NCBI GenBank assembly: GCA_044220955.1
Contig: JBGAQA010000027.1
Span: 1 to 64,000, forward strand
Reading direction: 5' to 3'
DNA from: Sandaracinaceae bacterium
GTDB lineage: Bacteria > Myxococcota_A > Polyangia > Polyangiales > Sandaracinaceae
DNA length: 64,000 bases
Position 1 is the stretch's first letter. The number at the start of each line of letters is the position of its first letter. Under the pieces are notes generated by a model. The model had not been told where the DNA came from. It was given only the letters and a program-made list of their open reading frames with translations, and did no database searches. The translations under genes and the position numbers were made by a program. Positions 9,692 through 36,493 of this stretch are shown here, piece after piece.

Positions 9692-11182
9692 GTGGGTCAG
9701 CTGCCGCTCCCGCTCGCCCGGCCGAAGGGCGAGGCGCCCGCTCCGGTACCGCGCGGGCAGCGCGTCTACGTGAACCGCAACCTGCGCCTCGACCAGATCA
9801 CGTGGGCCGGGTTCGACATGGACTACACGCTCGCGATCTATCGCCAGGACGCGATGGACCGCATCAGCATCGAGCAGACCGCCAAGAAGATGGTCGAGCG
9901 CGGCCGGCCCGAGTCGCTGCTCTCGCTGCCCTTCGACACGGGCTACCCGATCCGCGGGCTCTTCGTGGACAAGAAGCTCGGCAACGTCCTGAAGATGGAC
10001 CGTTACCGCTACGTGAAGCGCGCCTACCACGGCCTGCGCCGCCTCACGCGCGACGAGCGGCGCCAGCTCTACGCGTCGCGCCCGATCCGCCCCGGGACCA
10101 AGCGCTTCCACTGGGTCGACACCCTCTACGCGCTGCCCGAGGTCACGCTCTACGCGGCGGCCGTCCAGCACCTCGAGGAGCTCGGCCAGCGCGATCTCGA
10201 CTTCGGCGCGCTCTTCGACGAGGTGCGCGAGTGCATCGACCTCTGCCACCAGGACGGCAGCATCGTCGACGTCATCGCCGACCATCCGGACGAGTACCTC
10301 GTGCGCGATCCGAGCCTCGGGCCTGCGCTCCACAAGCTGCGCTCCTCCGGCAAGCGCCTGTTCCTGCTGACGAACTCGCGCCCCGGCTACACACGGAAGA
10401 TCATGAGCTACCTGCTCGACGGCGCGCTGCCCGAGTACGCGCGCTGGCAGAGCTACTTCGACGTCATCGTGTGCGCAGCCAAGAAGCCGCGCTTCTTCAC
10501 GGACTCGGGGATCCCGTTCGTGCCCGGCGAGCCCGACCTCGCGCCGCCGACCGAGCGCTTCGAGGACGGGCGCATCTACGAGGGCGGCTGTCTGAGCGAG
10601 CTCGAGCGACTCCTGGCCGGCACCAACGGCGGGCCCATCGCCGGTGACGAGGTCCTCTACGTCGGAGATCACATCTACGGTGACGTGCTCCGGACGAAGA
10701 AGGAGACCGCCTGGCGCACGATGATGATCGTGCAGGAGATGGACGCCGAGATCGCCGTCCACGACGCGCGGGCCGACGACCTGGCGCGGCTCGACGCGCT
10801 GCACGAGGTGCGCGAGCAGGTGCTCGACGAGCTCCGGGGCCACCAGAGCCAGCTCAAGGCGGTCGAGCGGGCGATCGAAGAGGCGGGTCGCGCGACGGCC
10901 ACCCTCGGCGCCAGCAAGGTGGCGTTACGGAAGGCCATCGACCGCGGCAAGGGACGCCTCGCCGAGATCGACGCGGAGCACGACGAGCTGGACGCGTCCA
11001 TCGACCGCGCCTTCCACCCCTACTGGGGGTCGGCTTTCTCGACGGGCGAGGAGCTCACCGTGTTCGGCGACCAGGTCGAGCAGTACGCGTGCCTCTACAC
11101 CGGCCGGGTCTCGAACCTGCTGTCGTACTCGCCGACCTACTATTTCCGGGGGCCCCGCGACCGGATGCCCCACGAATACTGA
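9692..11182 (+). CDS. HAD-IG family 5'-nucleotidase (NT5C2-like)
   Basis: GFDMDYTLAIY, FLLTNS, AKKPRFF and YVGDHIYGDV motifs; C-terminal MPHE. Confidence 0.93.
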   Translation: MGQLPLPLARPKGEAPAPVPRGQRVYVNRNLRLDQITWAGFDMDYTLAIYRQDAMDRISIEQTAKKMVERGRPESLLSLPFDTGYPIRGLFVDKKLGNVLKMDRYRYVKRAYHGLRRLTRDERRQLYASRPIRPGTKRFHWVDTLYALPEVTLYAAAVQHLEELGQRDLDFGALFDEVRECIDLCHQDGSIVDVIADHPDEYLVRDPSLGPALHKLRSSGKRLFLLTNSRPGYTRKIMSYLLDGALPEYARWQSYFDVIVCAAKKPRFFTDSGIPFVPGEPDLAPPTERFEDGRIYEGGCLSELERLLAGTNGGPIAGDEVLYVGDHIYGDVLRTKKETAWRTMMIVQEMDAEIAVHDARADDLARLDALHEVREQVLDELRGHQSQLKAVERAIEEAGRATATLGASKVALRKAIDRGKGRLAEIDAEHDELDASIDRAFHPYWGSAFSTGEELTVFGDQVEQYACLYTGRVSNLLSYSPTYYFRGPRDRMPHEY

Positions 11183-11270
11183 CGGGCGCGGCCGCCGTCA
11201 AAGATGGACACCGCCGGGCGGTAGCCGTATACAAGTTGAGAGGTCCGAGGGAGAATCTCCCGCCCCGTCC

Positions 11271-12008
11271 ATGCGCCTCGCCATCTTCAGCGACGTCCAC
11301 GCCAACATCGAGGCGCTCTCGGCGGTACTCGAGGCCTACAGGCGCGAGAACGTCGACGTCCATTATTGCCTGGGCGACGTGGTCGGCTACGGCGCCAGCC
11401 CCAACGAGTGCGCGGACCTGGTCCGCAAGCTCGCCAAGGTCACCATCCTGGGCAACCACGACGCTGCCGTCGCCGGCCGCATGGACTACTCGTACTACTA
11501 CGAGGCCGCCCGCCAGGCGCTCGACACGCACGCGCGGCAGCTGACCAAGGAAAACCACGAGTGGCTCAAGCAGCTGCCGTACAAGCACGAGCTGCGCGAG
11601 ATCGGCCTCACGCTCTGCCACGGCTCGCCGGTGCGGCTCGAGGAGTTCGAGTACATCTTCGCGCCCGAGCAGGCGCGCGAGTGCCTCTCCATCTGGGACG
11701 ACCTCGCGGACCTGACGCTCATCGGACACTCGCACCTGTGCAAGGTGTTCGCCCTTCGTCCCGGCGAGGTCGAGGAGCTCCCCGCCAAGCGGTTCACGTT
11801 GCGTAAGGGGTGGAAGTACGTCGTGAGCGTCGGCTCGGTCGGCCAGCCGCGCGACTACGACAACCGCGCCAGCTACACCCTCTACGACACCGAGTCGCGC
11901 GAGTTCGAGTTCAAGCGCGTCGAGTACGACATCGAGAGCGCCGCCACGAAGATCTTCGAGGGCAACCTCGAGCGGAACTTCGGGCACCGCCTCTTCATCG
12001 GCGTGTAG
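11271..12008 (+). CDS. Metallophosphoesterase (calcineurin-like)
   Basis: SDVHAN, LGDVVGYG, GNHD, CHGSP, GHSH and GSVGQPRD motifs. Confidence 0.92.
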   Translation: MRLAIFSDVHANIEALSAVLEAYRRENVDVHYCLGDVVGYGASPNECADLVRKLAKVTILGNHDAAVAGRMDYSYYYEAARQALDTHARQLTKENHEWLKQLPYKHELREIGLTLCHGSPVRLEEFEYIFAPEQARECLSIWDDLADLTLIGHSHLCKVFALRPGEVEELPAKRFTLRKGWKYVVSVGSVGQPRDYDNRASYTLYDTESREFEFKRVEYDIESAATKIFEGNLERNFGHRLFIGV

Positions 12009-12016
12009 CTCGTGCT

Positions 12017-12053
12017 CCCTCTCCCACGAAGTGGGAGAGGGCTGGGGTGAGGG
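12017..12053 (+). repeat. REP-like palindromic element, copy 1
   Basis: CCCTCTCCCAC-GAA-GTGGGAGAGGG hairpin followed by CTGGGGTGAGGG, between convergent genes; near-identical copy at 59661. Confidence 0.8.
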
Positions 12054-12068
12054 CCACGAGGCCGCAGG

Positions 12069-13274
12069 TCACCCCACCCGGACCAGGCCGTGCCAGGGTG
12101 CGACTCCGTCCGTGGCCGCGAGCAGGGGCGGGCGCTGCATCTCGCCAGGGGGACAGAGCCGCGGCGAGAGCGGCGCGGGCAGCACCAGGCGCTCCGGGTC
12201 GCCAGCGACGGCGACGACCTTGAGGTGCGCTCCGTAGATCGCCAGGCGCGCCGCGAGCTCGGCCGGCGTGTCGAACGCGTGCACGGCGATGTTCCGGTAG
12301 CCGGGGGTCGGGCGAACGGCGAGGCCCTGCTCGAACGAGGTCGCGTAGCCGTCGCCCTCGAAGAGCTCGTGCAGGCTCGACGCGAGCCCGCGCCACTGCA
12401 CCTGCTGGGCGCCGATCTCGATCGGCAGCGCGCCGCGCGGCATCGTGATCGCGAGCAGCGCGAGGCCCTGCGTCGCGACCAGCGAGGCGAGGTCGCGCGG
12501 GCTCAGCTCACCGCCCTTCTCGACGAAGACCACCTGCGGCGAGAGGCAGCCCCGCTGATCGTAGGCGGCCACGTCGCGCGCGATCGCGGCGGCGAGCGCG
12601 GGCAGGTGCGACGAGAGTGCCGTCCGGAGCACGACGATCGCCCCGAGGCCGTGGCCGTGCGCCACGAACTCGGTGCTCGGCGAGGTGGCCGCGCGCATCT
12701 GCCCGATCGCGTGATCGCCACCGTGCGCCGAGACCAGATCGACGCGCGCCGCCAGCCGCGCGTAGATCGGAGCGGACTCACCCCGCGGCCAGAGCACCGC
12801 GACGCTCGCGCCGAGCTCGGGATCGGCGGCCGAGAGCGCGACCCCGAAGAGCTCGGCGAGCCCGTCGTCGTGTGTCGCGACCTTCACCAGGACGGGCACG
12901 CGCGCGAGCAGCGACCACACCATCGGCCGCAGGCACGCGGTGAACACGCTCTGCGCAAGCACGAGCGCGTGCGCACGGACCGGCGTCGTCCGGTACGGCC
13001 CGAGCGAGCGGCGCATGGCGGTGAGCGCGTCGTCGAGCGCCGAGCGCCGGAGCTCGGCGAGCGTCGTGTCGAGCCCCCACGCCGCGCCCCCGGGCGAGAG
13101 CCCGGAGCGCTCCGCGATGGTCGTGCGGGCCTCGCGTCCGACGGGGGATCGGGGATCGGCCAACGCGGTGACCGCTGCGTCGAGCCAGGCGAGCACGCGC
13201 TCGTCCGGGGCCGCACGGAGCGCCGCCCCGGCGTCGGTCACGCGTCCGATCACCGCGTCGTTCGGCTCGCTCAT
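12069..13274 (-). CDS. luxC: LuxC-like acyl-CoA/acyl-protein reductase
   Basis: Starts MSEPNDAV with ATGA overlap; ALDH-like fold cues (LVKVAT, AHGGDHAI, FVAHGHGLG); catalytic-Cys motif DVAAYDQRGCLSPQ. Confidence 0.82.
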   Translation of the reverse strand: MSEPNDAVIGRVTDAGAALRAAPDERVLAWLDAAVTALADPRSPVGREARTTIAERSGLSPGGAAWGLDTTLAELRRSALDDALTAMRRSLGPYRTTPVRAHALVLAQSVFTACLRPMVWSLLARVPVLVKVATHDDGLAELFGVALSAADPELGASVAVLWPRGESAPIYARLAARVDLVSAHGGDHAIGQMRAATSPSTEFVAHGHGLGAIVVLRTALSSHLPALAAAIARDVAAYDQRGCLSPQVVFVEKGGELSPRDLASLVATQGLALLAITMPRGALPIEIGAQQVQWRGLASSLHELFEGDGYATSFEQGLAVRPTPGYRNIAVHAFDTPAELAARLAIYGAHLKVVAVAGDPERLVLPAPLSPRLCPPGEMQRPPLLAATDGVAPWHGLVRVG

Positions 13275-14341
13275 CGCCTCTTCCCGACCGCCTCCTCGAT
13301 CGCGAGGGAGCACCCGCGCGGCGTCGCGCCGGGCGCCCGGCCGAGCAGGATCACGCGCTCGCCGTCCATCCGCCCGACATCGGCCGTCTGGATTGCACAG
13401 CACGAGTCCACGTTCGCGAGGTCGTCGATGCGCAGCACCCCGGGCTGGCCCGCGGGGACCGGGCGCAGTGTCTCGGGATCGCATGGCGTGACGCGCACCC
13501 AGGGCGGGACGATGAGGCGCTCGACGCCGTCCTGCGGCAGGCGGCCCTCGCGCAGACCGTCGCCGTAGAGCTGCGAGCTGAGCTCGGTCATCCCGTACTC
13601 GCTCACGATGCGGTGCTCGGGCAGCGCGAGCGTGCGGGCGAGCTCGCGCCGGAGATCTCGCGCGCTCACCTCGCGCGAGCGGCCCTTGAAGCCGCCCGTC
13701 TGCATCACGAAGCTGCCCTCGCGCAGGGGGATCGTCGCGCCGTCGAGGGCGTCGAGCAGGTGCACGAGCGCGAACGAGGTCGCGCACACTCCGAGCGGCT
13801 CCGCGGCCGTCTCGAGCGCGGCGCGCGCCGCAACGAGGTCGAGCGTGTGATCGCCCCACGCCCAGCTCGCCTGGGTCGCGAACGTGGCCTCGAACATCTC
13901 GAGCATGAACGAGAGCGAGGAGTCGGGCGCTTCGATCGTCATGGGCGCGAGCATCAGGAGCGCGCGGCGGCCGCCGCCGAAGAGCGCGTGCGCCGCCATC
14001 AGCTCGGCGGCCCGCTGGTAGGTGTACACGTGCCGCAGCGGGTGCGTGCCGCGCGCGCCGCTCGTCGTCCCCGAGGTGTGGAAGACGGTCATGTCCTCCT
14101 CGGGCGGGTGCGCGGCCACGCGCGCGAAGCGGAACACGTCCGTCGGGAGCGCGGGCCAGCCGTCGGGGCCGCGATCGAAGCGGCCGCCGCGCGCGCGGAC
14201 GAGCCGCCCGAAGGGCTCCACGTGCTCGGCCTGCCACGCCGCGAGCTCGGCGAGCAACGCGTCGCGCTCGAAGCGCACGTCGCGCTCGAAGACGCTCGGC
14301 TCGAGGAACGCCTGCACCTTGGCCGCGATGCGCTCGCTCAC
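13271..14341 (-). CDS. luxE: LuxE-like acyl-protein synthetase
   Basis: GTG start overlaps the upstream TGA; FHTSGTTSG, MQTGGFKG, EYGMTELSSQ, IQTADVG motifs; C-terminal PRGCSL. Confidence 0.86.
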   Translation of the reverse strand: MSERIAAKVQAFLEPSVFERDVRFERDALLAELAAWQAEHVEPFGRLVRARGGRFDRGPDGWPALPTDVFRFARVAAHPPEEDMTVFHTSGTTSGARGTHPLRHVYTYQRAAELMAAHALFGGGRRALLMLAPMTIEAPDSSLSFMLEMFEATFATQASWAWGDHTLDLVAARAALETAAEPLGVCATSFALVHLLDALDGATIPLREGSFVMQTGGFKGRSREVSARDLRRELARTLALPEHRIVSEYGMTELSSQLYGDGLREGRLPQDGVERLIVPPWVRVTPCDPETLRPVPAGQPGVLRIDDLANVDSCCAIQTADVGRMDGERVILLGRAPGATPRGCSLAIEEAVGKRR

Positions 14342-15657
14342 GACCGGTCCTCCAGGGCGAGCACGAGGTCGAGCGCGTCGACGAACGCGTCGAGCTGCGC
14401 GGGCGCGATGCAGAGCGGCGGCGTCAGCGAGAGCACGCTGGCGTCCGCGCCGGCGGCCAGCGTGATGAACCCGCGCTCGAGCAGGGCGGCGGCCACCCGC
14501 AGCGCAGCGCCCGGCTGCCGGAGCTGCACGCCGAGCAAGAGTCCACGCCCGCGGATCTCGGCCACGGAAGGATGCTCCGTGGCGAGCCTGCCGAGGCGCG
14601 TGGCGAGATCCGCCCCGACGCGCGCGGCGCGACCCACGAGATCCTCCTCCTCGATCACGTCGAGCGCCGCGAGCGCGGCGGCGCAGGCGAGCGGCTGCCC
14701 GAAGAAGGTCGCCGTGTGGATCGATTCCTGGTCCGGCGTGCCCCACGCCTGCATCACCATGTGCGGCGCGAGGCAGGCCGAGACGGGCATCCCGCCGCCG
14801 AGCGCCTTGCCGAGGCAGAGGACGTCGGGGACGACGCCCTCGCGCTCGCAGGCGAAGCGCGCCCCGGTGCGGCCGAGGCCGGTCATGATCTCGTCGACGA
14901 CGAGGAGCGCGCCCTGCTCCCGCGCCAAGCGCGCGAGCGAGGCGAGCCAGCCGTCCGGCGGCACGACGACGCCGCCGCGCCCGAGGATCGGCTCGACCAC
15001 GACGCAGCCCACGCTCGAGCCGCGCAGGTGCGCGCCGATCACGTCCATCGGGGCGCCGTAGGCCTCGAACAGCACGTGCGGGTTGAGCTGTGCCGCGAAG
15101 GGCGCGCGGAAGCGCTCGGCGTAGCCCGAGATGGCGAGCGGGCCGTGCGCGAGGCCGTGGTAGCCGCCGTGGAAGGCGAGCACACCTGGGCGGCGCGTGG
15201 CGAGCATGGCTGTCTTGAGCGCCGCCTCGATCGCGTCGCCGCCGTGCGCCCCGAGGATCACGCGCGCCTCGGGGAAGGGCGCGAGCGCGCCGAGCCGCTC
15301 GCAGAGCTCGATCTTCACGTCGGATGGATGCACGTCGCCGAGCGCATGGATCAGCCGCTCGCTCTGCTCCCGGATCGCGCGCACGACGGCGGGATGCCCG
15401 TGGCCGATCGAGGCCGCGCCGAACCCGGCGACCATGTCGACGAGCACGTTCCCGTCGGCGTCGACGACGTTGCTGCCGCGCGCCGCGGTCCACACGATGG
15501 GGTCCTGCGGCGCTCCCACGGCCTCTGCCCGCCGCTCGCGTCGCGCCGTCAGCGAGGGGCACTCGGTGCGCGCGAGCACCTCGACGAGCGCGCGCGAGCG
15601 ACCCCCCGGGATCGGGACGGAGACGGCGGGAACGCGCGATCCGAGCTCGCCGGTCAT
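14338..15657 (-). CDS. Class III PLP-dependent aminotransferase
   Basis: DMVAGFG..SIGHGHP, FHGGYHG, DEIMTGLGRTG and GKALGGG (PLP lysine) motifs. Confidence 0.92.
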   Translation of the reverse strand: MTGELGSRVPAVSVPIPGGRSRALVEVLARTECPSLTARRERRAEAVGAPQDPIVWTAARGSNVVDADGNVLVDMVAGFGAASIGHGHPAVVRAIREQSERLIHALGDVHPSDVKIELCERLGALAPFPEARVILGAHGGDAIEAALKTAMLATRRPGVLAFHGGYHGLAHGPLAISGYAERFRAPFAAQLNPHVLFEAYGAPMDVIGAHLRGSSVGCVVVEPILGRGGVVVPPDGWLASLARLAREQGALLVVDEIMTGLGRTGARFACEREGVVPDVLCLGKALGGGMPVSACLAPHMVMQAWGTPDQESIHTATFFGQPLACAAALAALDVIEEEDLVGRAARVGADLATRLGRLATEHPSVAEIRGRGLLLGVQLRQPGAALRVAAALLERGFITLAAGADASVLSLTPPLCIAPAQLDAFVDALDLVLALEDRS

Positions 15658-15740
15658 GGGCCGCGTGTCGTAGCCGGTTTCGCGCGTCTTCGCATGCGGG
15701 TGCTACGATCCGAGTCTCTTCTCTTCCTGCGAGGTGCGCG

Positions 15741-16211
15741 ATGCGTGTGACGGGGCTCTCGATGGTTCTCGCGGTCTCGGTGCTCGGCTGCGGCGGCAGC
15801 ACGCCTCTCGGCGGGACGGACGCCGGCGCCGGGAATGACGCGGCGACGGGCGTGGACTCGGGGACCGACGGCGGTGGACCGGGCGCGGACGCCGGCGACC
15901 CCTGTGCGTACGTCGACGCGATCGACCGCACCTGCTCGACCGACGCCGACTGCGCGATCGGGCTGCACCAGATCAACTGCTGCGGCAGCTCGGTGATGAT
16001 CGGCTACCGGAGCACGCAGACCGGCGTGCCCGCGAGCGAGTCGGCCTGCATGGCGAGCTACCCCGGCTGCGGCTGTCCGGCGATGCTGCCGACGACCGAC
16101 AGCGGCGAGACCGTCACCGACACCGGCGCCGTGCAGGTCGCCTGCGTGACCGTGGGCCCGACGGCCGTCTGCCGCACCTACGTCACGATGCGCCCGCCGA
16201 ACGGGCGCTGA
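15741..16211 (+). CDS. Small Cys-rich lipoprotein
   Basis: Lipobox MRVTGLSMVLAVSVLGC; DAG linker; C..D.DC...CC..C..C.C pattern; GAGG SD. Confidence 0.78.
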   Translation: MRVTGLSMVLAVSVLGCGGSTPLGGTDAGAGNDAATGVDSGTDGGGPGADAGDPCAYVDAIDRTCSTDADCAIGLHQINCCGSSVMIGYRSTQTGVPASESACMASYPGCGCPAMLPTTDSGETVTDTGAVQVACVTVGPTAVCRTYVTMRPPNGR

Positions 16212-16224
16212 TCCACGACCCCGA

Positions 16225-16668
16225 CTACTCGATCCGGACGGAGGCGCTCGCGACGCACGCCCCCGCGCAGCCGTGCTGTCCGCGGTCGGGCTCCTCGCGG
16301 TACGCGTAGCTCAGCGCGCCCGTGTGAAGGCTGCCGGTGATCTCCTGCTTCGTCGTCCAGTGGCAGCCGTCGCTGAAGTCGAACCCGGTCTGGATCTGGA
16401 TGTCGACGTCGCCGGTGCTGCTGACCGTTCCGTCGAAGCGCGATCCCCCGAACGAGGCGGACGCCCGACCGCCTGCGCACGGGTAGGTGAGTCGCGCAGG
16501 CGCCGCCGTGACGCGCTCGTCGATGCGGCAGCCGGAGCGCACCTGGACGTCGTACACGACGAGCATCGCGCTGCACGTCGCCCCCGGCGGCGGTGGCTGC
16601 GCGATCGTGCGCGAGTCGGACGAGGCGAAGACCAGCAGGGGCACGAGGACCAAGAGAGCGCGCTTCAT
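16225..16668 (-). CDS. Small secreted disulfide-rich beta protein
   Basis: Signal-like MKRALLVLVPLLVFASS; 6 Cys; TATCCT 6 nt upstream of the ATG. Confidence 0.72.
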   Translation of the reverse strand: MKRALLVLVPLLVFASSDSRTIAQPPPPGATCSAMLVVYDVQVRSGCRIDERVTAAPARLTYPCAGGRASASFGGSRFDGTVSSTGDVDIQIQTGFDFSDGCHWTTKQEITGSLHTGALSYAYREEPDRGQHGCAGACVASASVRIE

Positions 16669-16688
16669 GCCGCGAGGATACCAGGCGC

Positions 16689-17302
16689 CTACCTCCAGCG
16701 AACCTCCGCCACGCACTCGTGCGCGCCGTGGCTCACGCAGTGGGTGCGCCGCGCGCTCACGTCCTTGGCGCCCGTCAGCTCGAAGATGGCGCACATCGTC
16801 TCGATCGTGACCTCGCAGAGCAGCACGTGGTGGCCGGGCCAGTCCCACGTGCGCGAGATCGCCTGGCCGGGGCGGGGGATCACGATCTCGCGCGAGCCGC
16901 CGTCGTGGAGCATCCGCCAGAGGCGCTGGATGTTCCGCGCGTAGAACCCCGGCGTCACGATCTGTCCGACGACGAACCGGTACACGCCGTTCATCGAAGT
17001 CCGGACCGCCTCGCGCGCCGCCGTTCGGATCAGCGCGTGTCGCTCCCCGGCCGGGTGGGGCGCCACGATGGCGTCGAGCAGCGCATGCACCAGGGCCGCG
17101 TCGTACCAGCTGCTCGCGATGAGCCCGAGCGCCTCGTCGCGTGGGTCGAGCTGCGCGGCGATCTCGGGCGGCATCTGCGCGACGGCCGCGGCGAGCGCGT
17201 CGCTTCCGTGCGCCCGCGCGTACCAGCGGACCACCTCGCGAATCGCGGCGCCTTTGACCTTGGCGGGAGTGCCGGGCGCGGCTCGGCCGTTGATCGTGGC
17301 CA

Positions 17303-17303
<1 letters not shown>
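16689..17303 (-). CDS. Hypothetical protein, possible V4R/H-NOX-like small-ligand-binding fold (myxobacterial family)
   Basis: GTG overlaps the yeaH stop (TAGTG); KVKG..., ASSWY and C-terminal CVSHGAHEC.. W pattern. Confidence 0.65.
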
Positions 17304-18415
<1,112 letters not shown>

Positions 18416-22297: not shown

Positions 22298-22660
22298 ATG
22301 TTCGAGGCCTACCTCCCGATGTTCCTCATCCTGGCGATCGCCGTCGCGGTCCCGGTGCTCCTCTACGTCCTCGCCTCGTCCCTCGGGCCGAAGGACCCGC
22401 CCAACGAGGAGTTCCTGATCCCCTACGAGTCGGGGTCGGAGTCGACCGGAGCCCGGCACGTCAAGCTCTCGGTCAAGTTCTACCTGACCGCGATCCTCTT
22501 CGTCGTCTTCGACATCGAGGCCGTGTTCCTCTATCCGTGGGCCGCCCGCTTCCGCGAGCTCGGCTGGTTCGGGCTGGTGGAGATGGTCCTGTTCCTCGGC
22601 GTGCTCGGCGCCACGCTGCTCTACGCCTGGAAGAAGGGCGCCCTCGAGTGGGAGAAGTGA
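22298..22660 (+). CDS. nuoA: NADH-quinone oxidoreductase subunit A
   Basis: PYESG and FYLTAILFVVFDIEAVFLYPWA motifs; KKGALEW; AGGAG SD. Confidence 0.95.
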   Translation: MFEAYLPMFLILAIAVAVPVLLYVLASSLGPKDPPNEEFLIPYESGSESTGARHVKLSVKFYLTAILFVVFDIEAVFLYPWAARFRELGWFGLVEMVLFLGVLGATLLYAWKKGALEWEK

Positions 22661-22663
22661 CGC

Positions 22664-23362
22664 ATGGGTGAAGCGAACAAGCCGTCGACGATGACGATGG
22701 GCGGTGGCGACGCCGGCTTCGTCACGACTCGCCTCGAGGATCTCGTCGCCTGGGCGCGCAAGTACTCCCTGTTCCAGTACCCGTTCGTCACGGCCTGCTG
22801 CGGCATGGAGTTCATGTCGCTCAACGGGCCGCGCTACGACGGCCTCGCGCGCTTCGGCGCGGAGGCGCCCCGCTTCTCGCCGCGCCAGGCCGACCTCCTC
22901 TGGGTCGTGGGCACCGTGTCGCAGCGCCAGGCGCCCGCGCTCAAGCGCATCTACGAGCAGATGGGCGACCCGAAGTACGTGCTCGCCTTCGGCACGTGCG
23001 CGAGCTGCGGCGGCTTCTACGACAACTACGCGACCATCCCCGGAATCGACAAGGTCATCCCGGTGGACGTCTACGTGCCCGGCTGTCCGCCGCGTCCGGA
23101 GGCCGTGATCGACGGGCTCAACCTCCTCATGGAGAAGATCGGCAACAACAACCGCGAGCCGCTGGTCGTGCCGCCGCGCGAGATCCCCGTGATGACGCAG
23201 CTGCGAAAGAAGGGCTCGCCCGTCTTCTTCGGGCAGGAGCGCATCCGAGAGCAGCGCGCGCAGCTCGGCGTCGGCCAGGTCACGCTCGACGATCTGCTCG
23301 GCACGGGCGAGCGCAAGGTGGAGACGACGGCCGTCCTCTCGGAGGGCGATCACGATGAGTAA
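22664..23362 (+). CDS. nuoB: NADH-quinone oxidoreductase subunit B
   Basis: TACCGMEF, SPRQAD and YVPGCPPRPE motifs. Confidence 0.96.
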   Translation: MGEANKPSTMTMGGGDAGFVTTRLEDLVAWARKYSLFQYPFVTACCGMEFMSLNGPRYDGLARFGAEAPRFSPRQADLLWVVGTVSQRQAPALKRIYEQMGDPKYVLAFGTCASCGGFYDNYATIPGIDKVIPVDVYVPGCPPRPEAVIDGLNLLMEKIGNNNREPLVVPPREIPVMTQLRKKGSPVFFGQERIREQRAQLGVGQVTLDDLLGTGERKVETTAVLSEGDHDE

Positions 23363-24023
23363 GGCAGTCGTCGCAAGGCTGAAGGCGCAGCTCGGCGCCA
23401 AGATCCTCGAGACCAGTGACTTCCGTGGCGACGAGACGGTCGTCGTCGGCAGGGGCGACTGGCAGGCGGTCGGGACCTTCCTGCGCGACGACGCCGAGAC
23501 GCAGATGGACATGCCGGTCGATCTCACCGCCGTGGACTACCCGGAGCGCGCGCAGCGCTTCGAGGTGATCCTGATGGTGCGCTCGCTGGCCAAGAAGCAC
23601 CGTGTCCGCGTCAAGACGCGCCTCGCCGACGGCGAGAAGCTCGGCACGCTGATCGGCGTGTGGGAGGGCGTGAACTGGCCCGAGCGCGAGGTGTACGACA
23701 TGTTCGGCATCTCGTTCGAGGGGCACCCCGACCTGCGCCGCATCCTGATGTACCCGGAGTTCGAGGGGCACCCGCTCCGCAAGGACTACGACATCGCGAG
23801 GACGCAGCCGCTCGTGACGTATCGCGACGTCGGCGAAGGGAAGTTCGCCCCCTTCGATCACCACGAGGGCCAGCCCTGGTCGCGCGTCGACTGGCAGGAG
23901 CGCGCGCACGGGCGCGACATCCAGGTCTCTCCCGCGATCGGCCTGCAGGAGAAGCAGCGTCCGACGCTCAGCAAGGGCCACGAGTACGTCGCCCCGGCGG
24001 TCTCGGCCGACCCGGAGGAGTAG
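23355..24023 (+). CDS. nuoC: NADH-quinone oxidoreductase subunit C
   Basis: WPEREVYDMFGISFEGHPDLRRILM..GHPLRKDY motif. Confidence 0.96.
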   Translation: MSKAVVARLKAQLGAKILETSDFRGDETVVVGRGDWQAVGTFLRDDAETQMDMPVDLTAVDYPERAQRFEVILMVRSLAKKHRVRVKTRLADGEKLGTLIGVWEGVNWPEREVYDMFGISFEGHPDLRRILMYPEFEGHPLRKDYDIARTQPLVTYRDVGEGKFAPFDHHEGQPWSRVDWQERAHGRDIQVSPAIGLQEKQRPTLSKGHEYVAPAVSADPEE

Positions 24024-24027
24024 CGCA

Positions 24028-25248
24028 ATGGAGCCGAACTACGAAGATCTCGCCGAAGAAGGCGGCGTGCTCGAGCTCCCGGCCGAGCCGATGCGCCTCA
24101 ACATGGGGCCGTCGCACCCGGCGATGCACGGCACCATCCGCATGGTGCTCGAGCTCGACGGCGAGACCGTCGAGGAAGTGGACGTGCAGCCGGGCTACCT
24201 CCACCGCGGCTTCGAGAAGAGCTGCGAGCGCGGCACCTGGACGCAGGTGTACCCCTACGTGGATCGCCTCAACTACGTCTCGCCGATGCTCAACAACGTC
24301 GGCTTCTCGCTCGCGGTCGAGAAGCTCTGCGACATCAAGGTGCCCGAGCGCTGCCAGTGGTACCGCATGATCCTCGGCGAGCTCGCGCGGATCAGCGACC
24401 ACCTCACGTGCAACAGCGCCGGCGCGATGGAGCTGGGCGCGTTCACCCCCTTCCTCTGGTGCGTGAAGGTCCGCGACTGGGTCTGGGACATCCTCGAGCA
24501 GGAGACGGGCGCGCGCCTGACGCACTCGTTCGGTCGCATCGGCGGGATGGCCAAGCCCCCGACCCCATACCTGAAGGACTCGGTCCGCGCGATCATCCCG
24601 CAGGTGCACGAGGTGCTCGCGGAGACCGAGTCGCTGCTCCTCAAGAACCGCATCTTCCTCGACCGCATGCAGGGCATCGGCAAGCTGAGCCGGGAGCGCG
24701 CGCTGGCCCTCGGCGTCACCGGCCCCGTGCTGCGCTCGACGGGCGTCGACTACGACGTCCGCAAGGCGACTCCGTATCTCCTCTACGACAAGGTCGATTT
24801 CGACATCCCGATCGGCCACGACGGCGACAACTACGATCGCTTCATGGTGCGCTTCGAGGAGATCCGGCAGTCGCTGCGCATCCTCGAGCAGTGCATCGAC
24901 AAGATGGCCGACGAGGGCTCGGTCAACGTCGACGACCCGCGCGTCGTCCTCCCCGAGAAGGCCGCCGTGTACTCGACCATCGAGGGCACGATCGCGCACT
25001 TCAAGCTGGTGATGGAGGGCTTCAAGCCCCCGGCGGGCGAGGTCTACGCGTACACCGAGGGCGGCAACGGCGAGCTCGGCTTCTTCATCGTGAGCGACGG
25101 CAGCGGCACGCCTTACCGCGTGCGCGCGCGGCCGCCGTGCTTCTACAACCTCCAGGCCACGCGGGAGATGATCTGCGGCGAGATGATCGCCGACATCGTC
25201 CCCACGTTCGGGTCGATCAACATGATCGGCGGCGAGTGCGACAGGTAG
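24028..25248 (+). CDS. nuoD: NADH-quinone oxidoreductase subunit D
   Basis: NMGPSHPAMHG, GYLHRGFEK and DRLNY motifs; C-terminal GECDR. Confidence 0.97.
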   Translation: MEPNYEDLAEEGGVLELPAEPMRLNMGPSHPAMHGTIRMVLELDGETVEEVDVQPGYLHRGFEKSCERGTWTQVYPYVDRLNYVSPMLNNVGFSLAVEKLCDIKVPERCQWYRMILGELARISDHLTCNSAGAMELGAFTPFLWCVKVRDWVWDILEQETGARLTHSFGRIGGMAKPPTPYLKDSVRAIIPQVHEVLAETESLLLKNRIFLDRMQGIGKLSRERALALGVTGPVLRSTGVDYDVRKATPYLLYDKVDFDIPIGHDGDNYDRFMVRFEEIRQSLRILEQCIDKMADEGSVNVDDPRVVLPEKAAVYSTIEGTIAHFKLVMEGFKPPAGEVYAYTEGGNGELGFFIVSDGSGTPYRVRARPPCFYNLQATREMICGEMIADIVPTFGSINMIGGECDR

Positions 25249-25252
25249 TCTG

Positions 25253-26839
25253 ATGCCCAACTTCAAGCTGGATGGCAAAGAGCTTCCCTACGAGCCGGGC
25301 GACACGATCATCCGCGCCGCGTGGCGCGCGGGGATCGAGATCCCGCACTACTGCTGGCACCCGGGGCTGAGCATCGCGGCGAACTGCCGCATGTGCCTCG
25401 TCGAGATCAAGAGCGCGCGCCCGATGGCGCTGCCGATCCTCGCCTGGGACGACAAGAAGAAAGAGTACGTCGAGGCAACGAAGAACAAGCTCCAGCCTGC
25501 CTGCCAGCAGGAGATCACCGAGAACATGGAGGTCATCAGCAAGGGCCCGGCCGTCGAGAAGGCGCAGGGCGCCGTGCAGGAGTTCCTGCTCCTGAACCAC
25601 CCGGTCGACTGCCCGATCTGCGACCAGGCGGGCGAGTGCAAGCTCCAGGACTACTGGCTCGAGCACCAGAAGAAGCTCAAGCGCAAGACGGACGAGCCCG
25701 TGCACAAGCCCAAGGGCGTGCGCTTCGGCCCGACCATCGTCTACGACGCCGAGCGCTGCGTCATGTGCACGCGCTGCGTGCGCTTCTGCGACGAGGTCGT
25801 GGGCGACCACGTGCTCGACATGCGCGAGCGCGGCAACCGCAACGAGATCTGCCTCTCGCCGGGGCGCGAGCTCGACCACGCGTACACGCTGATGACCGAG
25901 CACGTCTGTCCGGTCGGTGCGCTCACGAGCCGCGACTTCCGGTTCAAGGCGCGCGTGTGGTTCCTGCGCAGCGCGGCCGGCGTGTGCACGGGCTGCGCGA
26001 CGGGCTGCAACAGCTGGGTCGACTACGACCCGCGCCAGGACCGGGTCTACCGTCTGCGTCCGCGCGACAACGCGAACGTGAACGAGTTCTGGATGTGCGA
26101 CGACGGCATGATGACCTACAAGCGCTTCCACGAGGATCGCATCCTCACGGGGCGCGTCCGCGAGGGCGACAAGGTCGTCGAGGTCACGCGCGAAGAGGCC
26201 ATCGCCGCGGCCGGCAAGGCCATCTGGGGGAAGCTCAAGCTCGCGATCGTGCTCAGCGCCCAGCACGGCAACGAGGACAACTTCGTGCTGTCTCGCCTCG
26301 GCGGCTCGCTCGGCGCCTCGCGCGTGTTCCTCGCCGCCAAGAGCGCGGCGGGCTGGAAGGCCGACGCGATCCTGCGTGACGCCGACCCGAACCCGAATCG
26401 CCAGGGCGCGCTCGCCGTGGCCGGCGGCTCGGCGCAGAGCACCGCCGCGCTGGTCGCGGCCGTGAAGGCGGGCGACGTGGACGCGATCCTCTCGCTCGGC
26501 TGGGCGGCCGAGGAGAGCGCGGCCGAGCTCGCGGCGCTCACGGGCGTGCCGCACGTGAACCTGAGCACGAACATCGGCCCGCTCACGCAGTCGGCGACGA
26601 TCGTCGTCCCGGTCGCCACGGTGGCGGAGGCGAGCGGCACCTTCGTCAACGGCAAGGGCGTCGCGCAGCCTTACGCCAGGGCCGTGAGGGCGCCGCTCGG
26701 GATCAAGTCCGCGTGGGAGACGCTCGCCGAGATCGCCGAGAAGGCGGGGACCGAGATCACCTGGAAGAAGCTGCCCGAGGTGCGCGCCGCCATGCCGTCG
26801 TTGCCGACGGCGGCGCCGGCGAACGGGGCGGGGGCCTGA
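25253..26839 (+). CDS. nuoG: NADH-quinone oxidoreductase subunit G (short form)
   Basis: IPHYCWHP..ANCRMCLV, HPVDCPICDQAGEC, CVMCTRC..CPVGAL and CTGCATGC..C Fe-S motifs. Confidence 0.9.
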   Translation: MPNFKLDGKELPYEPGDTIIRAAWRAGIEIPHYCWHPGLSIAANCRMCLVEIKSARPMALPILAWDDKKKEYVEATKNKLQPACQQEITENMEVISKGPAVEKAQGAVQEFLLLNHPVDCPICDQAGECKLQDYWLEHQKKLKRKTDEPVHKPKGVRFGPTIVYDAERCVMCTRCVRFCDEVVGDHVLDMRERGNRNEICLSPGRELDHAYTLMTEHVCPVGALTSRDFRFKARVWFLRSAAGVCTGCATGCNSWVDYDPRQDRVYRLRPRDNANVNEFWMCDDGMMTYKRFHEDRILTGRVREGDKVVEVTREEAIAAAGKAIWGKLKLAIVLSAQHGNEDNFVLSRLGGSLGASRVFLAAKSAAGWKADAILRDADPNPNRQGALAVAGGSAQSTAALVAAVKAGDVDAILSLGWAAEESAAELAALTGVPHVNLSTNIGPLTQSATIVVPVATVAEASGTFVNGKGVAQPYARAVRAPLGIKSAWETLAEIAEKAGTEITWKKLPEVRAAMPSLPTAAPANGAGA

Positions 26840-26840
26840 G

Positions 26841-28280
26841 ATGGAGCACGCTCTCGACGCCTCGACGGCAGAGTCCCTCGGCCTTGGCTGGATGCTCCTC
26901 GCGTCCGTCCTGAAGATCGCGTTCATCCTGAGCGTGTCGCTCCTCTTCTTCGCTCCGGTGTTCGTGCTCTTCGAGCGTCGCCAGAGCGCGATGGTGCAGG
27001 ACCGTGTCGGGCCGATGCAGGGCGGCATCAAGCTGCCGCGCATCGTCATCGACAACATCCAGAACCTCCAGCTCGGCGCCCTGCTCGTCGCGGTCGTCTG
27101 CTCGATCATGACGGTCGTGTGCCTGGTCCAGCTCGCGCTGGGGAACGGCGAGTCGGCGATCTTCACCGAGCCGCTCTTCGGCATCGCCCACACGTGGAAC
27201 GGTCTCTTGTTCCTCTTCGCGATGCTCGCGCCGGTGCACTTCGTGGCGTGGTTCGTCCTGCCGGAGCTCTTCACGCACGATCGGCTCACGATCTTCGGCG
27301 GGCTGCATGCGCTCTTCGACGCCGTGAAGTCGTTCACCAAGCGCGACTTCGTCCCGCCGCACGGCGACAAGCTCCTCTTCGCGCTCGCACCCATGATCGC
27401 GATGTTCCCGGCGTTCGCCCTCGGCGCGGTGCTGCCGTTCGGGCCGACGCTCTATCCCGGTCATCTGCTCGAGCAGGCCCCGCCGGGCGGCTTCGGCGAC
27501 GGCACCGCGATCCCGCTCCAGGTCGCCTCGCTCAACGTCGGCATCCTCTACATGTTCGCGCTCGGCGGCACCGGGATCATCGGCGCCGCGCTCGCCGGCT
27601 ACGCCAGCGACAACAAGTTCGCGCTCCTCGGCGGCCTGCGCGCCGCCAGCCAGATGGTCAGCTACGAGGTCACGCTCGGTCTCGCGCTGGTCGGCTGCTT
27701 CATGGTCTACGACTCGCTGCGCCTCGAGGACATGGTGCAGTGGCAGGCCGACCACGTCTGGGGCGTGCTCGTGCAGCCGCTGGGGTTCGTCCTCTTCCTC
27801 ACCGCGTCCATCGCCGAGTACAAGCGCGTGCCGTTCGACGCGCCCGAGGGCGAGAGCGAGATCGTGGCCGGCTACTTCCTCGAGTACGCCTCGGGCAAGT
27901 GGCTGATGTACATGATCGGCGAGTTCCTCGAGGTCGCGACGAGCTCGATGCTCATCGCCGCGCTCTTCTTCGGCGGCTGGGACGTGCCCTTCCTGCAGGA
28001 CGGCGGCTGGGAGGCGTTCGGCCACCGCTTCGACCTGCTCGGGACGAACTTCGCGATCCTGAGCGAGGTGCTCAACTCGCACCTCGTCGTGACGGCGATC
28101 CGGGTCGGGGCGTTCGTCGGCAAGGCCTTCCTGCTCGGCGTGCTCAGCATCCAGATCCGCTGGACCTTGCCCCGCTTCCGCTACGACCAGATCATGAGCC
28201 TCTGCTGGAAGCTGATCCTGCCGCTCTCGCTCGTGAACGTGCTCGTGACCGGCATCTTCATCCTCGCTTTCCAGGACTGA
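26841..28280 (+). CDS. nuoH: NADH-quinone oxidoreductase subunit H (elongated)
   Basis: ERRQSAMVQDRVGP, LRAASQMVSYE, PFDAPEGESEIVAG and RWTLPRFRYDQ motifs. Confidence 0.95.
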   Translation: MEHALDASTAESLGLGWMLLASVLKIAFILSVSLLFFAPVFVLFERRQSAMVQDRVGPMQGGIKLPRIVIDNIQNLQLGALLVAVVCSIMTVVCLVQLALGNGESAIFTEPLFGIAHTWNGLLFLFAMLAPVHFVAWFVLPELFTHDRLTIFGGLHALFDAVKSFTKRDFVPPHGDKLLFALAPMIAMFPAFALGAVLPFGPTLYPGHLLEQAPPGGFGDGTAIPLQVASLNVGILYMFALGGTGIIGAALAGYASDNKFALLGGLRAASQMVSYEVTLGLALVGCFMVYDSLRLEDMVQWQADHVWGVLVQPLGFVLFLTASIAEYKRVPFDAPEGESEIVAGYFLEYASGKWLMYMIGEFLEVATSSMLIAALFFGGWDVPFLQDGGWEAFGHRFDLLGTNFAILSEVLNSHLVVTAIRVGAFVGKAFLLGVLSIQIRWTLPRFRYDQIMSLCWKLILPLSLVNVLVTGIFILAFQD

Positions 28281-28293
28281 GCGGAGTCGCACC

Positions 28294-28881
28294 ATGGCGT
28301 ACAAGATCCACAAGCCTGCGCGCACCGTCGGTGATCAGGTCTACGTCGTCGAGGCCGCCAAGGGGCTCGGCGTGACGTTCTCGCGCCTCTTCACGAACCT
28401 GTTCTCGGCCGAGGAGAACAAGAAGATCGCGACGATTCGCTACCCCGACGAGACGCGCGACTACCCGGAGCGCTTCCGCGGCGTGCATCGCCTCACGCAC
28501 CGCACCGACGGCAGCCCTCGCTGCGTCGCGTGCCTCTGCTGCAGCACCGCGTGCCCGGCGCAGTGCATCCACATCGAGCCCGCCGAGTACGAGCCGGGGG
28601 ACGCGCGCTACGGCTACGAGCGCTTCCCGAAGGCCTTCGTCATCGACGAGCTGCGCTGCATCTTCTGCGGCTTCTGCGTCGAGGCGTGCCCCTGCGATGC
28701 CATCCGCATGGACACGGGCACGCACGTGCCGGGCTCGACGAGCCGGCAGGACTTCTTGTTCGACAAGGAGACCCTGATGAGCATCCCCGGCCGCGACGGC
28801 ACGTACGTCACGGCGAACCCGCGCCACGAGCCGGGCGATCCGGGGCACCCGGGGATCGACCGCGAGCACGGCGGGCATTGA
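28294..28881 (+). CDS. nuoI: NADH-quinone oxidoreductase subunit I
   Basis: Two 4Fe-4S motifs (CVACLCCSTACP, CIFCGFCVEACP); RFRG.H. Confidence 0.95.
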   Translation: MAYKIHKPARTVGDQVYVVEAAKGLGVTFSRLFTNLFSAEENKKIATIRYPDETRDYPERFRGVHRLTHRTDGSPRCVACLCCSTACPAQCIHIEPAEYEPGDARYGYERFPKAFVIDELRCIFCGFCVEACPCDAIRMDTGTHVPGSTSRQDFLFDKETLMSIPGRDGTYVTANPRHEPGDPGHPGIDREHGGH

Positions 28882-34963: not shown

Positions 34964-36493
34964 TCAGTGCGCTTCCGGCATCAGGGACGCGCGGTGTACG
35001 CCCTCGAGCTCCAGCGTGATCCCTCGCCGCACCGCCAGCGCTTCGAAGTCCCGCAGCGTCTCGCGCACGTCCTCCGATACGAAGTCGGCGCGGCCCTTGG
35101 CGACCACGATGCGCTTGGTGCCTTCGGGCGCGCCGTTCAGCGCGTCGAGCAGCTGCGCCTTGTGGAAGAAGTACGCGTCCTTGCTGAACGAGATCCGCCG
35201 GATCTCCCCGCGGTCCTCGATCGTCAGGAAGTTCCGCATCGACTCGCGCAGCGTGAGGACGACGCCCACCGCGAGGCCGACGACGATGCCGATCAGGAGA
35301 TCGGTGAACAAGATCGAGACGATGGTCACGAAGTAGGGCGCGAAGACGCGCGGGCCGCGTCGCCACATCGCGATGAAGGCCCGCGGATCGGCGAGGTCGA
35401 GGCCGGTGACGACGAGGATCGTCGCGAGCGCTGCCAGCGGGACGTGGCGCAGCGTGGACGCGAGGAAGAGCACCGAGACGAGGATGAGCACGCCGTGCGT
35501 GAACGCCGCAGCGCGCGTCCGCGCGCCTGCGCTCACGTTCGCGCTGCTGCGGACGATGACGCTCGTCACGGGCAGTCCGCCGAGCGCGCCCGAGATGAGG
35601 TTGGCGGCGCCCTGGGCGAGCAGCTCGCGATCCGGATCCGAGTGGCGCTTCTCCGGGTCGAGCTTGTCGACCGCGCCGAGCGAGAGCAGCGACTCCAGTG
35701 TCGCGACGATCCCGACGACGAGCCCCATGCGCCACGTGCTGAAGTCCGAGAAGGGCGCGAGGCTCACGGGCACGAGCGCTCCGGCGGCGTCGAGCGGTAC
35801 GTCCACGAAGTGTCGCTCGTCGAGCGAGAGCTCCGGAGCCCAGAGCTCGTAGCTCCACGCGATCGCCGTTCCGATGAGCACGACGACGAGCGGAGCGGGC
35901 AGCCACGCGACCTTCTTCCACGCCGTCCGGCGGTGCACGAAGAGGATCACCAGCGCGATCGCGCTCACGGTCACGGCGGTGGGCTCGATCGCGCCGAGCG
36001 CGTGCGCGAGCAGAGAGAAGGTGTTGCCCTCGCCCTCCACGAAGAACTCGTCGCTGTCGAAGGCCTCGTGGTCGTAGCCGACCGCGTGCGGGAACTGCTT
36101 GAGCACGAGCATGACGCCGATCGCGGTCAGCATGCCGCGGATCACCGTCGAGGGGACGAACGCGGTCACGACGCCGGCCCGGAGCGCGCCCAGCCCGAGC
36201 TGGAGCAGGCCCGCGACCATCGTGGCCGCGCAGACGGCGCCGAACCCGTGCTGGCTCACGCCCGCCGCCACGATCGCCGCCAGGCCCGCAGCAGGTCCGC
36301 TCACGGAGAGCGCCGAGCGGCTGATGAGCGGGACGACGAGCCCTCCGACGCAGCCGGCCACCAGGCCTGCGACGAGCGGCGCGCCCGAGGCGAGCGCGAC
36401 GCCGAGACAGAGGGGGAGGGCGACCAGAAACACCACGAGCCCGGCGGGAAGATCCCGCCCCAGCGTCGTGGTCCAAGCTTGCGTCTTGCTCAC
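34964..36493 (-). CDS. SulP/SLC26 inorganic anion transporter
   Basis: DLPAGLVVFLVALPLCLGVALASG, SVSGPAAGL and ELLAQG..N..GGLPVTSVIVRSSAN motifs; GTGA overlap with the upstream gene. Confidence 0.93.
   Translation of the reverse strand: MSKTQAWTTTLGRDLPAGLVVFLVALPLCLGVALASGAPLVAGLVAGCVGGLVVPLISRSALSVSGPAAGLAAIVAAGVSQHGFGAVCAATMVAGLLQLGLGALRAGVVTAFVPSTVIRGMLTAIGVMLVLKQFPHAVGYDHEAFDSDEFFVEGEGNTFSLLAHALGAIEPTAVTVSAIALVILFVHRRTAWKKVAWLPAPLVVVLIGTAIAWSYELWAPELSLDERHFVDVPLDAAGALVPVSLAPFSDFSTWRMGLVVGIVATLESLLSLGAVDKLDPEKRHSDPDRELLAQGAANLISGALGGLPVTSVIVRSSANVSAGARTRAAAFTHGVLILVSVLFLASTLRHVPLAALATILVVTGLDLADPRAFIAMWRRGPRVFAPYFVTIVSILFTDLLIGIVVGLAVGVVLTLRESMRNFLTIEDRGEIRRISFSKDAYFFHKAQLLDALNGAPEGTKRIVVAKGRADFVSEDVRETLRDFEALAVRRGITLELEGVHRASLMPEAH

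Follow-up and report, generated by a model that had tools for sequence, protein, structure and literature searches.

A conserved aminotransferase-LuxE-LuxC operon in Myxococcota as a candidate nitrile-free route to the queuosine precursor preQ1

Here we describe a three-gene operon of a Sandaracinaceae bacterium and the evidence that it may supply preQ1, the free base from which the tRNA nucleoside queuosine is built. The operon lies on the minus strand of contig JBGAQA010000027.1, within the 64,000-nt stretch of DNA that was analysed (hereafter the window; ~72% G+C). Its first gene (14338-15657) encodes a class III aminotransferase of 439 amino acids (aa), dependent on pyridoxal phosphate (PLP) and matching PF00202 (Aminotran_3) with 311.3 bits. 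It is followed by a gene with a GTG start for a LuxE-like adenylate-forming acyl-protein synthetase of 356 aa (13271-14341; PF04443, 47.7 bits, gathering cut-off 24.9), and by a gene for a LuxC-like acyl (thioester) reductase of 401 aa (12069-13274; PF05893, 103.6 bits, cut-off 21). Consecutive genes overlap by four bases, GTGA at 14341-14338 and ATGA at 13274-13271, and all three frames are backed by the codon-position GC pattern. The first-pass annotation of this DNA had reported three minus-strand genes with 4-nt overlaps, and both its coordinates and its overlap letters are correct; the cysteines that it called intact, in PRGCSL of the LuxE-like and YDQRGCLSPQ of the LuxC-like protein, are both present. 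A convergent metallophosphoesterase gene (11271-12008) forms the downstream border, and upstream a gap of ~570 bases is followed by small open reading frames (ORFs) that match no family. A scan of 11800-16400 for promoters and terminators gave nothing over shuffle expectation. No gene of the LuxA/B or LuxD families was seen among 49 other window genes scanned with Pfam, which agrees with the earlier statement that luxA, luxB and luxD are absent; these candidates (22 + 27) were chosen by codon-position GC score, so the scan covers a selection of the window's ORFs.

Across most Myxococcota the trio is kept in the order aminotransferase-LuxE-LuxC, as a core operon close to single-copy. The genome that holds the window (an assembly of 7.5 Mb in 301 contigs, 88% complete) has one LuxE-family match, the LuxE-like gene thus being single-copy, and one strong LuxC-family match. 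A LuxE-like gene is present in 169 of 201 Myxococcota genomes sampled evenly from the phylum, and in 39 of 41 relatives, including all 29 of high quality. Carriers of the trio reach down to a genome of 1.8 Mb (G128), and among 80 related loci are those of Sorangium cellulosum So ce56, Minicystis rosea and Polyangium species. At 20 loci of relatives, our own included, the aminotransferase adjoins the LuxE-like gene in every case and a LuxC-like gene was found in 18, one of the two misses being a truncated locus. Elsewhere in the phylum, 44 of 48 further loci have the aminotransferase next to the LuxE-like gene; a LuxC-like match was obtained at 40, and Pfam recovered LuxC at two more. The four loci where this neighbour is missing come from one family (f26), and in all five of its genomes that were searched an aminotransferase ortholog with the same residue signature (described below) is encoded elsewhere (identity in the tblastn alignment 43-47%, the next paralog reaching 33-35%). 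Fusions were also found: one genome (G160) encodes a LuxE-LuxC fusion protein of 773 aa, and of 34 longer homologs in databases, 32 are LuxE-LuxC fusions and two combine LuxE with a class III aminotransferase. The kept order, the retention of an unlinked aminotransferase ortholog in f26 and the fusions together argue that all three genes serve one pathway. Synteny had been proposed as a check by the first-pass annotation, and the three-gene order is indeed conserved both in relatives and across the phylum; with the aminotransferase-LuxE and LuxE-LuxC fusions, this favours its suggestion of a putative self-contained module leading from an acid through an aldehyde to a primary amine.

Both Lux-like proteins belong to their Pfam families and keep the residues expected for catalysis. 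A 15-sequence alignment of the LuxE-like protein shows no variation in the SG of TSGTT, in TGG.KG or in R342-G343-C344-S345, and large conservation of YGMTE; the Arg-Gly-Cys of RGCS occurs in 66/66 aligned sequences. The protein thus has the adenylate-forming motifs and the C-terminal cysteine, which in Vibrio LuxE carries the acyl group; its sole solved relative is LuxE (7xc6_E, E 1.5e-9). The LuxC-like protein has its catalytic cysteine, and Asp239, Gly242, Cys243 and Pro246 are present in 50/50 orthologs; no solved chain was matched by phmmer at E<=0.01. Orthology to the lux-operon enzymes was not found: the LuxE-like protein reaches 38.5 bits with NCBIfam NF052244 (cut-off 550), with no luciferase family nearby among the window genes scanned, and the LuxC-like protein 29.7 bits with NF052251 (cut-off 750). 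The LuxC-LuxE fatty acid reductase of luminous bacteria (PDB 7XC6; PF05893, PF04443) therefore resembles the trio in families, adenylation motifs, the LuxE C-terminal cysteine and the LuxC catalytic cysteine, but the trio scores far below the equivalog cut-offs, is found without luxA, luxB and luxD, and is coupled to an aminotransferase; its predicted substrate is a 7-deazapurine acid, compared to myristic acid for lux. A search of the ESM Atlas returned LuxE-family clusters only, commonest in Verrucomicrobiota and Gemmatimonadota. None of the three trio proteins belongs to the QueC (PF06508) or QueF (PF14489) families by Pfam or NCBIfam, and the preQ1 claim made below concerns function, not membership of these families.

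The aminotransferase forms a distinct class III subfamily, without either of the arginines that bind carboxylates in enzymes of the ArgD/GabT type. Within PF00202 it keeps the PLP-binding lysine (Lys284) and the aspartate that binds the pyridine nitrogen (Asp255), each in 64/64 orthologs. No NCBIfam equivalog cut-off is reached; the best matches are acetylornithine, gamma-aminobutyrate (GABA), putrescine and LysJ-type enzymes, all below cut-off, with acetylornithine transaminase first (298 against 457). The best solved relative is PigE (4ppm_A, 227.6 bits), and residue positions were read from alignments to solved PigE, ArgD, GabT and putrescine aminotransferase. Where these relatives have Arg or Lys in the HG(R/K) motif, the trio clade has Leu169 (L in 61, V in 2 and M in 1 of the 64 orthologs). 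The Glu of QGEGG is replaced by Arg227 in 64/64, and the Gln of DEVQTG by mostly aromatic or hydrophobic residues. The C-terminal Arg before PPL gives way to Q, S, T, V, A or I, the six commonest residues, in 62/64, the window protein having Ser410. In ArgD, GabT, OAT and LysJ-type enzymes the HGR-motif Arg is the residue that binds the distal substrate carboxylate, as in GABA, ornithine or acetylornithine, and the C-terminal Arg and the QGEGG Glu presumably form the Glu/Arg switch pair, with the Arg binding the alpha-carboxylate of the amino donor. Leu169, Arg227 and Ser410 thus place the protein outside the ArgD/GabT/OAT pattern, while FHGRT, QGEGG, DE(V/I)Q and the C-terminal Arg are all retained by the second-ranking paralogs that the same genomes encode; this difference argues against a plain ArgD or GabT. 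The earlier reservation that the enzyme might be an ordinary GabT/ArgD ortholog did not hold, given this signature and the separate ArgD-, HemL-, BioA- and GabT-like genes of the same genome. A replacement of ArgD, HemL or BioA by the trio was considered and rejected, since the genome carries separate genes for each. The loss of the distal-carboxylate Arg fits an aldehyde substrate without a carboxylate.

The genome itself has a gap in its queuosine pathway. On one contig (C295) queE (TIGR04508, 348.1 bits, cut-off 240) overlaps queD (TIGR03367, 99 bits, cut-off 89.25) in one operon, and on another (C234) tgt and queA lie side by side; QueA requires preQ1-tRNA. A second, weaker QueA-family match (E 6.9e-41) is found at C282:16646-17662. 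In the same assembly the search for QueC yielded no more than a weak, partial match (E 5.7e-4), and that for QueF none. The gap is not an assembly artefact, because the 41 relatives show it as well (QueC in 1/41, QueF in 0/41), assemblies of 1, 2 and 8 contigs included. Sorangium has queD two genes downstream of the trio in 10 records, and in Minicystis rosea queD is near the trio on the other strand.

Across the sample of 201 Myxococcota genomes, the LuxE-like gene and QueC/QueF have nearly complementary distributions. Of the 32 LuxE-negative genomes, 29 have full-length QueC, against 2 of the 169 LuxE-positive ones (G224, and G182 with a weak LuxE match); for strong QueF the corresponding counts are 25/32 and 1/169. 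QueC holders carry at least 14 family labels. QueA is encoded in 195/201 genomes, of which 193 have either a LuxE-like gene or QueC, and one genome (G163) lacks QueA, QueC and the LuxE-like gene alike. A switch is seen within a single family (f40), where four of five genomes have the LuxE-like gene and the fifth (G170) has adjacent queC and queF instead. An in-place replacement was considered for this family and rejected: the queC-queF locus of G170 and the trio locus of G230 have no ORF in common. A QueD match (E<=1e-15) was counted by hand in 136/169 LuxE-positive genomes. The trio is all but confined to genomes lacking QueC and QueF, which suggests that it makes preQ1 from a carboxylic-acid precursor; the near-universal QueA indicates a demand for preQ1 and QueD a supply of the acid. 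Together with the gap in the genome of the window, the phyletic pattern points to 7-carboxy-7-deazaguanine (CDG) as the substrate and preQ1 as the product.

We therefore consider it likely, as far as sequence can tell, that the trio is a QueC/QueF-independent, nitrile-free system for the synthesis of preQ1 from CDG. Chemically, the conversion is exactly that of COOH to CH2NH2. The LuxE-like protein would adenylate CDG, the product of QueE, with ATP and take the acyl group onto its C-terminal Cys344. The group would then move to Cys243 of the LuxC-like protein, where reduction with NAD(P)H would give 7-formyl-7-deazaguanine, and the aminotransferase would convert this aldehyde to 7-aminomethyl-7-deazaguanine (preQ1), for Tgt to insert into tRNA and QueA to extend. 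QueC (7-cyano-7-deazaguanine synthase) and QueF (preQ0 nitrile reductase) carry out the net step predicted for the trio, from CDG to preQ1, between QueE and Tgt. The two systems are near-exclusive in the sampled genomes and share no homology. The predicted intermediate of the trio is an aldehyde, those of QueC/QueF are an amide and a nitrile; the nitrogen would come from an amino donor via PLP instead of ammonia. QueC uses two ATP and QueF two NADPH, compared to which the trio would take one ATP and one NAD(P)H. The proposed aldehyde has been met before as a stable by-product of QueF variants, according to a QueF review (PMC13740343), in which, as of November 2026, the nitrile route is still the one presented. 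No paper linking LuxE or LuxC to queuosine, or describing an aldehyde route to preQ1, was found in the full-text literature searched. In a broader form, and with somewhat more reserve, we think that queuosine is made without a nitrile in most Myxococcota, as it probably also is in lineages of other phyla: the roles of QueC and QueF would fall to an acid reductase of LuxE/LuxC type and to a dedicated aminotransferase whose active-site arginine is relocated, and 7-formyl-7-deazaguanine would be a genuine metabolic intermediate.

Several observations weigh against this interpretation. Related genomes are not independent and the 2x2 counts are not corrected for kinship, so that they exaggerate how many independent events took place; a Fisher value computed from them does not stand for a probability. 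Both QueC and a LuxE-like match occur in G224, in G182 and, among the relatives, in G025, while G043 and G222 have QueA and neither a LuxE-like gene nor QueC. QueC-like ORFs below cut-off are present in LuxE-positive G187 (L185:1901-2635) and G185 (L186:1255-1845), with 36.5 and 87.1 bits against the TIGR00364 cut-off of 150.3, one of them directly after queD; they may be relics of a displaced queC, or working variants. Six genomes of family f42 that have the trio and no QueC carry a QueF-like gene below cut-off, for example G184 (L173:1615-2274; 72.8 against 86.9, NCBIfam). No QueD match at E<=1e-15 was obtained in 33/169 LuxE-positive genomes, although three QueC/QueF holders (G129, G170 and G173) also have none, so this threshold misses real QueD. 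QueE of the Cx14CxxC type, the only type searched for, is found in only 32/201 genomes and was dropped as a phylum-wide marker. In Myxococcota the trio shares no operon with queuosine genes, the proximity of queD is limited to Polyangiaceae, and flanking genes differ between distant genomes. No preQ1 riboswitch or other Rfam model was matched at E<=1 in window positions 11000-18000, and no Rfam model reached its gathering score in 11 loci, queE-queD and tgt-queA included. Nine metagenome loci related to a LuxE-LuxC fusion of Chthoniobacteraceae show no queuosine genes by tblastn or by Pfam on chosen ORFs. The aminotransferase also lacks the Arg that in its relatives binds the alpha-carboxylate of the amino donor, so that even transamination is a prediction here.

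The alternatives differ in how much of this pattern they account for. The first-pass annotation had favoured a fatty or acyl amine, a lipid building block or a signal, which implies that the LuxE-like protein activates a fatty or other aliphatic acid, the LuxC-like protein reduces it to an aldehyde and the aminotransferase turns this into a primary amine. The family names and the LuxE/LuxC precedent (the 7xc6 match) suit this idea, the missing distal-carboxylate Arg would fit a hydrophobic aldehyde equally, and PigE aminates an aldehyde delivered by a reductase domain. MxcL in myxochelin B and TamH in tambjamine synthesis are said to have comparable class III aminotransferase or reductase-transaminase roles. 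PigE (for the MAP moiety of prodigiosin; PDB 4PPM), TamH, TabE/TabA and MxcL all resemble the trio in going from an activated acid or thioester through an aldehyde to class III amination, but they belong to secondary-metabolite clusters and handle aliphatic chains, whereas the trio is a core, near single-copy operon; PigE moreover keeps the QGEGG Glu and the C-terminal Arg that the trio aminotransferase has lost. For tambjamine BE-18591, a preprint (bioRxiv 10.1101/2025.08.11.669332) reports that TabE, which is LuxC-like, and TabA make dodecylamine. A fatty amine leaves unexplained both the near-restriction of the trio to genomes without QueC/QueF and its persistence as a core operon in a genome of 1.8 Mb. 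It is also at odds with LuxE and LuxC equivalog scores far under cut-off and with the lack of lipid, acyl carrier protein (ACP) or secondary-metabolite genes beside the trio, among the Pfam-scanned window genes and the distant loci. We regard it as very improbable: the phyletic pattern and the queuosine gap point to CDG and preQ1. The chemical logic of the earlier proposal, acid to aldehyde to amine, stands as the best reading, and its product class does not. Equally hard to credit is an amino-acid semialdehyde route, where the Lux-like pair would reduce glutamate, aspartate, aminoadipate or a comparable acid at its side-chain or alpha carboxylate, and the aminotransferase would act like ArgD, OAT, LysJ, DABA-AT or HemL. 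The sub-cut-off NCBIfam matches of the aminotransferase lie in that direction, but the genome has ArgD-like, HemL, BioA and GabT-like genes of its own, the HGR Arg and the Glu/Arg switch pair are missing here and kept in the second-best paralogs, and the complementarity with QueC/QueF is again left without a reason.

A closer alternative keeps the substrate and changes the product. The trio could act on CDG or a related 7-deazapurine acid and yield an aldehyde or another amine for DNA modification or a secondary metabolite, with preQ1 or queuine being salvaged. That two sets of 7-deazaguanine genes can coexist is evident from LuxE-positive G224, where one locus (L175; G224:C41:82000-90000) holds FolE2, QueE and two QueC genes with no strong QueF; this cluster may represent a second, preQ0-type use of 7-deazaguanines. 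The presence of QueA, which acts on preQ1 in tRNA, in 195/201 genomes speaks against such a product, as do the QueD kept in most trio genomes and the QueE confirmed in the genome of the window, which would be needless under salvage. Near the trio, neither the Pfam-scanned window genes nor the distant loci show a DNA transglycosylase context. Phages likewise gave no relative of the LuxE-like protein: tblastn matched none of 50,697 phage records, and viral contigs yielded no confirmed relative. We consider this alternative unlikely, and synthesis of preQ1 for tRNA remains the preferred explanation of the trio.

The neighbourhood of the trio in the window, with PrkA, DUF444, metallophosphoesterase and nuo genes, offers no usable functional clue, and the PAPS reductase, SUF and HPPK genes that recur as flanks elsewhere are limited to one group of related loci. 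Some features of the window are worth recording in their own right. Genes for PrkA kinase and DUF444 (YeaH-like) proteins are usually neighbours; here they lie on the minus strand at 210-2309 and 17303-18415, ~15 kb apart, with the trio between them. A nuo operon on the plus strand (22298-28881) encodes subunits A, B, C and D, a NuoG-like Fe-S protein, H and I, with no NuoE/NuoF-type genes between D and G among the ORFs scanned. On the minus strand, 36490-38820 encodes a SulP-type sulfate permease fused to a STAS domain and a beta-carbonic anhydrase; this gene adjoins a second SulP gene at 34964-36436.

Pairs of luxC and luxE without luciferase genes are found in other settings as well. In flagellin glycosylation islands of Aeromonas, an orphan luxC-luxE pair of unknown function lies beside genes for ACP, 3-oxoacyl-ACP reductase and glycosyltransferases and is thought to feed a lipid-like part of the glycan (PMC7874193). 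The pair resembles the trio in lacking luciferase, but no dedicated class III aminotransferase is described in fixed order with it. Among metagenome contigs, L181:1510-6121 and L183:3275-8168 carry LuxE and LuxC followed by a DACNV-domain protein of 430-470 aa and an AlkZ-like DNA glycosylase, and no class III aminotransferase accompanies the pair at either locus. These loci represent another, unexplained use of LuxE/LuxC pairs. Since such distant pairs have other partners, the preQ1 function should not be extended to all orphan luxCE genes.

To our knowledge, the textbook account of queuosine synthesis has one bacterial route, by way of the nitrile preQ0, and no enzyme family other than QueF is cited as reducing nitriles to amines. 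The present analysis adds a phylum-wide complementarity test, an active-site signature of the aminotransferase, gene fusions and the occurrence of the trio in cultured organisms such as Sorangium cellulosum So ce56 and Sandaracinus amylolyticus. If the proposed route is correct, it would fill the "missing queC/queF" gap of a whole phylum and correct genome-based predictions of which bacteria make queuosine precursors and which salvage them. It would also give a function to a large clade of orphan luxC/luxE genes, define a new subfamily of class III aminotransferases and open a short way to convert 7-deazapurine acids enzymatically into amines.

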